Positions 60,866 through 63,927 of a DNA stretch of 64,000 bases are shown one piece after another (within the stretch, counting starts at the first letter, position 1; each line of letters starts with the position of its first letter). The stretch lies in the sequence record PX930851.1; one strand, written 5' to 3'. The notes beneath the pieces are model-generated. The model made no database searches. It was given only the letters and a program-made list of their open reading frames with translations, and was not told where the DNA came from. Made by a program: the position numbers and the translations under genes. This DNA comes from a phage.

Positions 60866-61043
60866 CTAAACGAATAGGTTCATGAATGCCATATCCCTGA
60901 ACAGAAATTTCTGTCGTAGGATAAATTCCATCAATATCACCCATATTCCAGGCTTCATTAAATTGCTGTTCGCCTGAATTACTAAACCACTCGGCGAAAG
61001 CATTTAGTACATCTTTAGAACCTTCAATAATTATCTTTGCCAT
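60822..61043 (-). CDS. hypothetical small protein
   Basis: 73 aa. Confidence 0.4.
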   Translation of the reverse strand: MAKIIIEGSKDVLNAFAEWFSNSGEQQFNEAWNMGDIDGIYPTTEISVQGYGIHEPIRLVEYDLCTGEEVKYD

Positions 61044-61405
61044 TATAAGCTCTCAGTAAAGGTACGAGCGATAACGTCGCGCTGCTGTTCCGGAGTCAGA
61101 GAGTTAAAGCGAACTGCATAACCGGATACACGGATGGTCAGCTGCGGATATTTTTCCGGATGCTTAACTGCATCTTCCAGAGTTTCACGACGCAGAACGT
61201 TAACGTTCAGGTGTTGACCACCTTCAATTTTAACTGTAGGTTGTGTTTCAATTTCAATTTCACGGGCATGCAAACCGTAGAAAATTTCCGGGTCTACAAA
61301 AGAGTCCTCTTTAAAGGTTTTAGAGACAATAATTCGTGCTTGAATACCATCTTCAAAATAAATAGTACCTTTATGTGTGCCTTCAAGAATTTGATATGCT
61401 TTCAT
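61043..61405 (-). CDS. autonomous glycyl-radical cofactor (GrcA/YfiD-like)
   Basis: 120 aa; C-terminal half [59 protein letters not shown] with RVSGY glycine-radical motif; 3' half GC-richer. Confidence 0.8.
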
Positions 61406-61412
61406 ATAAACC

Positions 61413-61742
61413 TCAATTAGAAAATAAATTTATCCAAGATTGTTCTTTAATTAAAAATGGCTCAGAATCATATGCCATTAAACTTTGGGTGATTAGTCCT
61501 TTAAAAGGTCCATCAATAAATTCCATGGTAAAATATGGAATTTTATTCATTAGCCGTGCATTAGGAGCAGTACATAAAACTCTGCATCCTTTGAATACAC
61601 CCTTTTGTAATTTGTATTGCTTGGGATAAAATTCGCTCAAAATGTTATTATTTGCTAAAATTTCAAAATGATTCACCAATTTATTTTTAATAGTTTTTGG
61701 CGAAAAATAGAGATATTCGAAAAGCTGTGTGTCTGTCATCAT
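61413..61742 (-). CDS. hypothetical protein
   Basis: 109 aa. Confidence 0.45.
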
Positions 61743-62281
61743 TGCATTCCAATAACAAAAAATTGAGGACGAACTGTTTCACCTGTTTCAGCATTATAGC
61801 TTCGACAACAGTGTTGTACCGTTTTAATATGGATATTGTAAATCTTATCCATATCAGGAGCTTTAATAGGTTCGTCAATTATGTACAAGATACGAGAAAG
61901 CGATAACCCACGGAATTTATGACCTTCATTACCGATAAAACTACGGACAGAATCAGTAAATAAACGAAAACGTATATCATCATTAGAATAACGCGAAAAT
62001 TCCTTTTTAATGTTATTTGCAGAAATTTTAGCGTAAGCTGAAGTATTAGAAAGAACAATAACTGTTCCGCCATCATACAGCCAATTAGCAGCAAAGTTAG
62101 TCACAGCAATTGATTTACCGGATTGACGTCCACCATCTATACGAAGTGTGCAGTACTGTTTGAGCACATCTTCCATTGGTGGAAGATAATCATTCTTACA
62201 AAGTTCTTCTACTCTAGCATCAGAATGGTGTGTAAAAGCATTCATCAGGGATAGATAAGGACCAGTTAAAAATGTTCTCAT
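61739..62281 (-). CDS. small P-loop NTPase-like protein (start uncertain; alternative ATG at 62329)
   Basis: Walker A GGRQSGKS, Walker B ILYIIDEP; 180 aa from ATG at 62281. Confidence 0.45.
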   Translation of the reverse strand: MRTFLTGPYLSLMNAFTHHSDARVEELCKNDYLPPMEDVLKQYCTLRIDGGRQSGKSIAVTNFAANWLYDGGTVIVLSNTSAYAKISANNIKKEFSRYSNDDIRFRLFTDSVRSFIGNEGHKFRGLSLSRILYIIDEPIKAPDMDKIYNIHIKTVQHCCRSYNAETGETVRPQFFVIGMQ

Positions 62282-62422
62282 TTTATTCTCTCTAAGTTTG
62301 GGCCATTCCGTGGCGCATGAATTGTCCATTTCTGTATTTACCCATTACCGCACTTGGGCTCGACCTTATCACAGGTTGGCGGGAATCCCTCATAGAATCA
62401 TGAGGTCCAGGTTGTTCCCATA

Positions 62423-62896
62423 TTATTTGAACGATTTAACGTACTGAATAGAACCTTTACTATTCACAAAGGCAATTTTACCATTTTTATTATACATGGT
62501 AGCAGTACGCTGATAACCATAGGTTTGTTTACCAGATTGATAACCAACTAATGCAAAATTATCTTCACCCATTTTATTCTGTTTAGCGCGAATGCGTTCA
62601 TGACCATGTGCCATAAGAACCTTAGCATCACCAGTTGCAATGGATCGACGAGTTTTTTCATCTTCAACTGCATTAACAAAGTCGTCAAATGAATCAAATT
62701 TAGCATGAGATTTATTATACAATTTTCCATCTACTGCATAATTATATCCCTGTACATCCATCTCAACTTCTGTACCATCATCCAATACAGCAGTAATTTT
62801 TTGACCTTTTTTAAATTTCAAAAGATCAGTAAAAGATTCAGCAATAATTTGAGAATTAATAGCTGCTTCAGTGATAAATTCTTGATATGTTTTCAT
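62423..62896 (-). CDS. internal protein with capsid-targeting sequence
   Basis: 157 aa; N-terminus MKTYQEFITEA matches the T4 IP targeting sequence with I-x-E cleavage context; adjacent to denV/e. Confidence 0.6.
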   Translation of the reverse strand: MKTYQEFITEAAINSQIIAESFTDLLKFKKGQKITAVLDDGTEVEMDVQGYNYAVDGKLYNKSHAKFDSFDDFVNAVEDEKTRRSIATGDAKVLMAHGHERIRAKQNKMGEDNFALVGYQSGKQTYGYQRTATMYNKNGKIAFVNSKGSIQYVKSFK

Positions 62897-62905
62897 GGGT
62901 TTCCT

Positions 62906-63322
62906 TTAAATGTAAATATTTTTACCGTAATACTTATACCAATGTGGTTTCATTAAAATTTTTTCATCAAGTCGTTGTTGACTCAATTTAATAGCTGATT
63001 TGCATGGATTATAATCATTTTTCCATTCTATTGGAATATCGCTGATGTCAGGAACTTCAGTATCTTTTATACTGAACCCGCGTTTTAAGCATTCCGTTAT
63101 AATGTCTAATTGACGCTTTCGCAAAAATTCTAACTTATCGTAAAAGAACGTAACATGACCAGAACCTAAAATAAACTCGGAAGATATTTTAAAATCTTTA
63201 ACGCGCTTACCGTTTGCCACATGCTTACGAACTATACCAAAAACACGCGGCAATTCACGGTATTCTGCGATTAAATGTTGATCAGCAAGTTCAGATACTA
63301 AAGTCAAATTAATACGAGTCAT
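62906..63322 (-). CDS. denV: endonuclease V (pyrimidine dimer DNA glycosylase)
   Basis: 138 aa [29 protein letters not shown]...; early promoter upstream. Confidence 0.9.
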
Positions 63323-63347
63323 TTTATCCCTCCAAGTAACTGTGAAT

Positions 63348-63377
63348 ATACTATCACAATTCTAGGAGAAAGTAAAC
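63348..63377 (-). promoter_or_regulatory. T4-type early promoter for denV
   Basis: minus strand gtttac-N18-tagtat. Confidence 0.5.
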
Positions 63378-63381
63378 AACT

Positions 63382-63927
<546 letters not shown>

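Follow-up and report, generated by a model that had tools for sequence, protein, structure and literature searches.

SroH has been known as a small RNA of E. coli since 2003, T4 is the reference virulent phage, and ROOL and GOLLD are orphan structured RNAs that phages carry near tRNA genes. SroH has been detected experimentally, its function is described as ‘still unknown’, and its sole reported phenotypes are the sensitivity of a deletion mutant to envelope stress, binding to (and being a substrate of) PNPase and polyadenylation (PMC5389530, PMC13572404). SroH is not among the established targets of Hfq, although one PAR-CLIP set showed its enrichment (bioRxiv 10.1101/2020.06.29.178624), and its distribution among E. 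coli strains is patchy (PMC3318445). Among catalytic RNAs, the theta (HDV-like) ribozymes of phages associate with tRNA genes (PMC10879173). Here we describe a 120-nt element of a T4-like phage, unannotated in most genomes, that is probably a phage branch of the SroH family not recognised before, and misread as protein in the T4 reference record. In the literature we found no report of a relationship between this phage RNA and SroH, of the core sequence described below, or of an RNA between denV and vs.8.

The window analysed here is the whole 64,000-nt stretch of phage DNA (PX930851.1). The phage is T4-like (Tequatrovirus), the locus is 98.8–99.6% identical to those of ECML-363, wV7 and RB51, and the gene order on the minus strand is e lysozyme, denV, Ip4, RNA element, vs.8 and vs.7. 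The element, whose core occurs once in the window, completely fills the gap between the Ip4 stop codon and the vs.8 ribosome-binding site (Table 1). An earlier, sequence-only reading had pointed to a G+C-rich segment at this place, and the composition bears this out: positions 62300–62419 are 51.7% G+C against a window mean of 34.3% (SD 4.6%, 120-nt windows), a value reached by just 0.02% of 120-nt windows. In line with the remark that the segment lacks a tRNA T-loop consensus, ARAGORN found no tRNA in the window and the Rfam tRNA model gave no match to the segment at E ≤ 10. A terminator scan of the minus strand (61600–63400) detected neither a terminator-like site nor a U tract, the 3' hairpin being followed by CCAAAC, and a promoter search around the element gave no significant excess and no promoter of its own. 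The next strongest G+C peak in the window (61031–61180, up to 51.7%) falls in the 3' portion of vs.6, a gene that T4 RefSeq lists as an autonomous glycyl-radical cofactor (GrcA-like); the composition of that peak looks host-like.

Table 1. Parts of the RNA element, its flanks and related pairings (window coordinates; positions left empty where none apply).
Feature	Position	Strand	Remarks
Whole conserved non-coding RNA	62300..62419	-	120 nt, first G of P1 to end of 3' hairpin
P1 outer stem, 5' strand GGGAA	62415..62419	-	pairs with 62381-62385
L1, 5'-side internal loop CAACCUGGA	62406..62414	-	
Proposed pseudoknot, 5' strand CUG	62408-62410	-	in L1; by homology to RB69-type loop
P1 inner hairpin CCUCAU-GAUUCU-AUGAGG	62388..62405	-	
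P1 outer stem, 3' strand UUCCC	62381..62385	-	
Pa, 5' strand CCA	62377..62379	-	closes three-way junction; pairs with 62342-62344
Pb hairpin ACCU-GUGAUA-AGGU	62363..62376	-	invariant in 34/34 distinct cores except loop purine (R)
Pc	62349..62362	-	CGA, short GC/GC stem with variable loop CCAAGU, then G
Invariant junction strand GUAA	62345..62348	-	same in all cores and SroH
Pa, 3' strand UGG	62342..62344	-	
Proposed pseudoknot, 3' strand CAG	62332..62334	-	homologous to alignment A2 columns 114-116
T4-group-specific 3' module	62300..62331	-	AUGGA motif 62325-62329; hairpin GCCA-CGGAA-UGGC 62302-62314
Ip4 internal head protein gene (DUF7412 / internal virion protein)	62423..62896	-	flanking; stop codon 3 nt ahead of P1
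Spacer after Ip4 stop codon (62423-62425)	62420-62422		
vs.8 ribosome-binding region	62282-62299		
vs.8 gene, 180 aa	61739..62281	-	start MRTFLTG; flanking, outside RNA
Pseudoknot pairing, T4-type			CUG/CAG
Pseudoknot pairing, rV5-type			CCAG/CUGG
Pseudoknot pairing, L023			GGGUA/UACCC
Pseudoknot pairing, L027-type			GAGG/CCUC
Pseudoknot pairing, PsgM04F-type			CGGAA/UUCCG
Rejected Duganella/Rugamonas loci			L067, L069, L071-L073, L076, L078, L079, L085, L086, L090, L092, L094

The segment is widespread among phages. By blastn it matched 1003 phage records, 557 of them over at least 80% of its length, and the carriers include Tequatrovirus (T4 among them), Mosigvirus (RB69) and T4-like phages of Klebsiella, Yersinia, Salmonella and Citrobacter. 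A core of 40–45 nt alone, ~90% identical, is present in Vequintavirus (rV5-like) phages, and the core was also found in Pseudomonas phage PsgM04F and in two uncultured lineages. Scans with an exact pattern returned 31 IMG/VR loci and 27 metagenome loci, and among 185,579 species genomes of bacteria and archaea the phage-type exact pattern had 0 matches. Conservation sets in abruptly at the GGGAA of P1 (62419), regardless of whether the gene upstream is Ip4, denV or another, and fades past GGCCC at 62300. As judged from these comparisons, purifying selection acts strongly on the element across phage families. It had been suggested from the sequence that the segment might be a terminator or a remnant of foreign DNA, from the host or another phage, without function; the hypervariable ip region and the atypical G+C content would fit a remnant. 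We now consider both ideas very improbable, as the segment has sharp boundaries, is under strong purifying selection, carries compensatory changes (see below), gave no BLAST match in 5426 E. coli genomes and is without a U tract. The proposed BLASTN comparison with phage and host genomes had a divided outcome, positive for phages and negative for E. coli.

Two sets of bacterial matches outside Escherichia and Shigella, from a second genome scan, were set aside. A degenerate DNA pattern matched 13 loci of Duganella and Rugamonas (Oxalobacteraceae), which all represent one conserved protein-coding gene to which the RNA model had no match, and a Bdellovibrionota match lies inside a 311-aa ORF.

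T4 itself offers a reason to consider that the segment encodes protein, either as an N-terminal extension of vs.8, as part of a 196-aa ORF or as a small leader peptide. The vs.8 gene of T4 NC_000866 is annotated as 64253..64912 (219 aa; L063 1754–2413), so that its first ~40 codons cross the element in a frame that is open in T4, and the window has ORFs of 196 aa (ATG at 62329) and 33 aa at the element. However, in the window the long T4 frame runs into a TAG and does not share the frame of vs.8, and in RB69-type sequences it is interrupted by stops and 1-nt indels. Across the relatives no frame is conserved or open in all types on either strand, which upholds the earlier judgement that there is no convincing ORF; the indels among them are not multiples of three, and substitutions in the helices are compensatory rather than synonymous. 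The PHROG 1488 profile begins at MRTF, its positions 2–177 aligning to vs.8 residues 3–180 with the ATG at 62279–62281, and the RB69 annotation uses the same MRTF start. The 196-aa ORF, raised before as a possible upstream extension (62282–62329) that would make the region coding, does not hold: its frame is broken upstream of MRTF in relatives, its ATG at 62329 is part of the conserved AUGGA motif, and that start is spurious. The N-terminal extension of vs.8 in T4 RefSeq, which is made of the RNA element, is very likely wrong, and the vs.8 gene model can be corrected. A coding role for the segment is, in our view, extremely improbable. What keeps the spurious reading frame open in the T4 RefSeq sequence is a tandem duplication of 9 nt, CTTATAGAG, immediately upstream of the vs.8 ATG; this duplication is missing in another T4 assembly, OZ209057 (L063 2290–2315 versus L001 1495–1515). 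Antisense ORFs were also discounted, open frames being common in G+C-rich sequence and the open frame differing between T4-type and RB69-type sequences.

RNA folding had been proposed as a check, and here the outcome was negative: the folding energy of the single sequence was no better than that of shuffled sequences on either strand (z = +0.74 for the minus strand, −0.73 for the plus strand), so the evidence for structure comes from comparison with relatives alone. This comparison confirmed both hairpins that had been picked out by eye, gccattccgtggc (GCCA-CGGAA-UGGC on the minus strand) and cctcat-agaatc-atgagg (CCUCAU-GAUUCU-AUGAGG on the minus strand), as helices conserved in relatives. 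The most informative sequences are of RB69 type, of which 25 distinct ones were analysed with RNAalifold and explicit pair counts. In these, 97.1% of cells in the alignment pair, against 20–43% when the partners are slid by 1–3 columns, and 45 cells have changed on both sides where shuffles gave 14.5, none of 500 shuffles reaching 45. Six pairs are compensatory, distributed over P1, P1b, Pa and the pseudoknot. RB69-type P1 reads AAAGG/CCUUU, and one of its pairs, equivalent to one in the outer stem of the T4-type P1, varies between G-C, C-G and A-U; P1b is C-G in 15 of the sequences and A-U in the other 10. A long-range helix joins the 5' bulge of P1 to a segment ~8 nt beyond Pa, and appears as CCG/CGG in 15 sequences, CAC/GUG in six and CGC/GCG in four; this helix is a pseudoknot.

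The T4-type subgroup, which includes the window, varies little and has two compensatory pairs, one in the outer stem of P1 (A-U to G-C in L024) and one in the inner hairpin (C-G to U-A in L050), the latter hairpin also showing U-A to U-G in L041 and L049. The covariation of the pseudoknot is limited to RB69-type sequences, with none within T4-type sequences, where the pair is invariant (CUG/CAG) and the pseudoknot is thus assigned by homology. In every family the P1 loop has a complement in the tail (Table 1), although complements of 3–5 bp are frequent by chance in single sequences, and counting Watson-Crick pairs only, the cross-family pairing receives modest support (Fisher p = 0.029). In the cross-family MAFFT alignment (A5) the registers of P1 differ by one column between families.

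The three-way junction, which lies between P1 and the pseudoknot, is nearly invariant in sequence. In 34 distinct cores it runs ACCUGURAUAAGGUCGAG, the short Pc stem capped by a loop of free sequence, and CGGUAA. Within this frame the junction-proximal pair of Pa occurs as A-U, U-A, U-G and C-G across T4-like sequences, and the Pc stem has the sequence GC/GC in the majority of phages, with GU/AC in L023 and GG/CC in SroH. All T4-like copies retain the 3' module, in which the first loop base is the single free position, and the rV5-like, Pseudomonas-phage and SroH versions lack it. In Tequatroviruses like JEP6 (L004, phage JEP6, 1495–1610), P1 and the junction core are gone and the 3' module (GGGUAAAUACAG...GCCACGGAAUGGCCC) is kept and joined to vs.8, which indicates that the element is modular and its core dispensable in these T4 phages. 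Overall, the comparative evidence supports a fold made of the stem-loop P1, a three-way junction (Pa, Pb and Pc) and a pseudoknot, and we are highly confident that the element is a conserved non-coding structured RNA. The suggestion of a small RNA or structured element has in this respect fared well, being backed by ~1000 phage records, by compensatory changes and by the SroH-like core.

The setting of the RNA differs between phages. In PsgM04F, L046, L023 and L062 the core lies inside arrays of tRNA genes and on the tRNA strand; in L062 its neighbours, within ~25 nt, are a tRNA and a sub-threshold tRNA-like sequence (26.7 bits, directly 3' of the RNA), so that ~110 nt are left. In rV5-like contigs of the L042 type (L042 2401–2632, also L043 and L048) the core has a near-consensus sigma-70 promoter on either side, the two being 203 nt apart with no ORF between them. 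These promoters read TTGACA-17-TATACT and TTGACA-17-TAAACT with TG (11/12 and 10/12 matches); in rV5-like phages a promoter is found 3' of the core. In nearly all T4-like phages vs.8 is the next gene after the element, and in L010, L012 and L018 it is an IP gene instead. Taken together, the tRNA-array, promoter-flanked and IP-gene settings speak for a discrete module of RNA and not for the leader of a single gene, and its location in other phages, within a tRNA array or downstream of a promoter of its own, further favours the small-RNA reading.

Several observations were made at these loci in passing. A 22-nt motif, CCCUUAGAGGGCUUGAUAGUGC, consisting of a small hairpin and a tail, flanks the RNA on either side in L027-type contigs, is found as a single upstream copy in the rV5 type (L027 54–245; L003 1560–1620, minus strand), and may be a processing or protein-binding site. 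In the L042 lineage the gene that comes next codes for a protein of 115 aa (PHROG 3330) whose N-terminus is rich in Arg (KKRRRRGRP). ARAGORN reported ‘tRNA-???’ genes with four-base anticodons (ctgg, atcc) at L062 3587–3669 and 3407–3475 and at L038 2501–2599. Phage tRNA arrays have ORF-poor spacers of 500–1000 nt (L064 2414–2908, L046 1012–1507 and L023 3342–4337); the SroH-like core fills part of each, so that further structured RNAs may be present there, and an Rfam search of these spacers found nothing.

These settings bear directly on the alternative that the element acts only in cis and is never a free RNA, being a leader or processing element of the vs.8 mRNA that controls translation or stability or, in a variant of this idea, protects the upstream Ip4 or denV message from 3' exonucleases. 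At the T4-type locus several features fit it: the element fits exactly between the Ip4 stop codon (3 nt away) and the vs.8 ribosome-binding site, precedes vs.8 in nearly all T4-like phages, has in the window neither a promoter nor a terminator of its own, and leaves its 3' module with vs.8 when the core is lost, as in the JEP6-like phages. The loops of this module also hold two GGA motifs that resemble CsrA sites, namely the A(N)GGA-type sequences AUGGA and, in the GCCA/UGGC loop, NGGAA; in the RB69 type the AUGGA of the 5' domain is base-paired, and the universal core is without A(N)GGA motifs. A vs.8-bound role does not, however, account for the phages in which an IP gene follows the core, for the promoter that follows in rV5-like phages or for the tRNA genes that flank it elsewhere, and the E. 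coli relative SroH is an sRNA gene standing by itself, with a -10 element and a terminator of its own. A purely cis-acting element is therefore unlikely, and a cis role could apply to the T4-specific 3' module alone.

The reading that we favour, with moderate confidence, is that the element is a non-coding, pseudoknotted phage relative of SroH that is released from its transcript and acts in trans by binding a partner. The RNA would be made within the early transcript running from denV/Ip4 to vs.8 and would be freed from it as a discrete stable species; the covarying helices would then hold the invariant junction in the shape needed by a partner, in trans. Such a partner would be conserved across gamma-proteobacterial hosts from E. 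coli to Pseudomonas and would most likely be a protein, and the effect would be to supply or mimic SroH activity during infection. That the RNA is trans-acting and binds a partner is the more tentative part of this proposal, for which we would not claim even chances.

A catalytic or ligand-binding RNA, either a new self-cleaving ribozyme that cuts polycistronic or tRNA-array transcripts or a small-molecule aptamer, would explain some of the same features. The ~25 invariant nucleotides at the junction, held by covarying helices and a pseudoknot, are what such an RNA might display, as are its independence of context and its presence in phage tRNA arrays, as for theta ribozymes (PMC10879173). The helix order P1(5')-PK(5')-hairpin-P1(3')-domain-PK(3') also matches the nested double pseudoknot of HDV-like ribozymes, a likeness of topology in which the pseudoknot covaries in RB69-type sequences only and has a cross-family p of 0.029. 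The details do not agree with this identity. The catalytic cytosine of HDV-like ribozymes is the first position of J4/2 (PMC10879173), whereas the base after the 3' strand of Pa is U and not C in T4-, RB69-, rV5-, L023- and PsgM04F-type sequences; the closing pair of P1 is G-C (T4-type) or A-U (RB69-type) where an HDV-like ribozyme needs a G.U pair at the cleavage site; and the inner hairpins are of 4–6 bp, several with tetraloops (GACG or GCAA in the rV5 type and L023) that cannot form an HDV-like L3/P1.1. The conserved nucleotides are, moreover, in the domain equivalent to P4 and not in the strands of an HDV-like active site. With these defining residues missing, we rejected an HDV-like ribozyme. 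Rfam ribozyme and riboswitch models gave no match at E ≤ 10, and there is neither an expression platform nor a constant downstream gene, which makes a ribozyme or aptamer quite improbable as a whole.

Other likenesses were set aside. Mimicry of, or antisense pairing with, rRNA was rejected: GCGGUAAU matches the 530 loop of 16S rRNA and GUAAUA the H44 loop of 23S rRNA, the shared words are of at most 8 nt, and the energies of the duplexes were no better than those of shuffled cores. Resemblances to the anticodon loops of tRNA-Tyr and tRNA-His (CUGUAAU/CUGUGAU), to boxB/nut, to the RfaH ops element, to the U-turn of the SRP Alu domain and to the P4 loop of twister found no support from structure or Rfam scans. 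A T4 replication origin was likewise rejected for the element, as oriC is near rI.-1 and the T4 origins have no motif in common (PMC3016281).

The relation to SroH was detected with a covariance model. Rfam had been named as a check on the structure and by itself gave nothing above threshold: a scan restricted to the 141-nt segment yielded a weak match to sroH (RF00372; 8.1 bits, E 4.8, gathering score 80), a 901-nt scan gave no sroH match, and gathering-free scans of the window, T4, RB69, rV5-like and other loci returned tRNAs and noise, bar this weak lead. A model built from the 34 phage cores only, with no SroH among them (R1, roughly calibrated), did match: E. coli K-12 sroH scored 28.3 bits with E 1.3e-8 in 6 kb (~1e-5 when scaled to the genome), and four other Escherichia/Shigella sroH loci (E. 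coli, E. albertii, Shigella) were also matched. SroH and the phage RNA have in common the junction core CAACCUG...AAGGUC-R-AG...CGGUAAUGG and the order Pa (with a possible bulged G), Pb, Pc, GGUAA strand and tail complementary to the P1 loop. The likeness to the rV5 type extends to a 5-bp P1 (GGAUG/CAUCC in SroH), a 7-nt 5' internal loop (CAGCAGA in SroH, CAGCCAG in the rV5 type), a 5-bp inner hairpin with a tetraloop followed by a single bulged nucleotide (A in SroH), and a loop-tail pseudoknot (CAGA/UCUG in SroH, CCAG/CUGG in the rV5 type). Pb is longer in SroH, where the position of the phage hexaloop holds an added helix, GCGA-UUA-UCGC, which supports Pb as a hairpin. From the match of the model and these parallels, we consider that the phage RNA is probably related to SroH. 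The absence of a BLAST match to the element in E. coli is explained by the longest shared word, which is shorter than 11 nt; a BLAST search of phages with sroH gave nothing relevant.

The phage relatives add sequence diversity that is absent from the near-invariant E. coli gene, and thereby provide the first fold supported by covariation. They also give a list of invariant nucleotides to mutate, and the function of SroH becomes testable from the phage side. More far-reaching, and in our opinion improbable, is the possibility that SroH and the phage RNA form a new functional class, either a ribozyme or aptamer or a decoy that titrates a host protein such as an RNA-decay or defence factor, with sroH as a domesticated phage gene.

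Among known phage RNAs, the species 1 and 2 RNAs of T4 (rnaC and rnaD) are small stable RNAs that lie with tRNA genes, a setting they share with the members of the present family outside the T4 group. R1, run over T4 62.5–74.5 kb, matched the denV-vs.8 element only and nothing at rnaC or rnaD. A tRNA-like T arm is present in rnaC and absent from the SroH-like RNA, and T4 carries both kinds at different loci. ROOL and GOLLD are five to eight times larger than the phage RNA, which has no Rfam match to either. Unlike the element in the window, SroH has an extra 5' hairpin, a different 3' hairpin, its own promoter (-10 element) and a Rho-independent terminator; as a free-standing gene with its own promoter it differs from the window copy, which has none, and resembles the L042-type phage copy, which has one. 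The sroH gene (L066 3328–3488) was found in 3740 of the 5426 complete E. coli genomes, nearly always at ≥99% identity, and among species-representative genomes in Escherichia and Shigella only, an accessory-like pattern of recent spread. The phage family is far more diverse, with hosts from E. coli to Pseudomonas. A family that is broad in phages and narrow and patchy in bacteria suggests an RNA that is primarily a phage tool, and its greater breadth and diversity in phages suggests, by inference only, that sroH is of phage origin.
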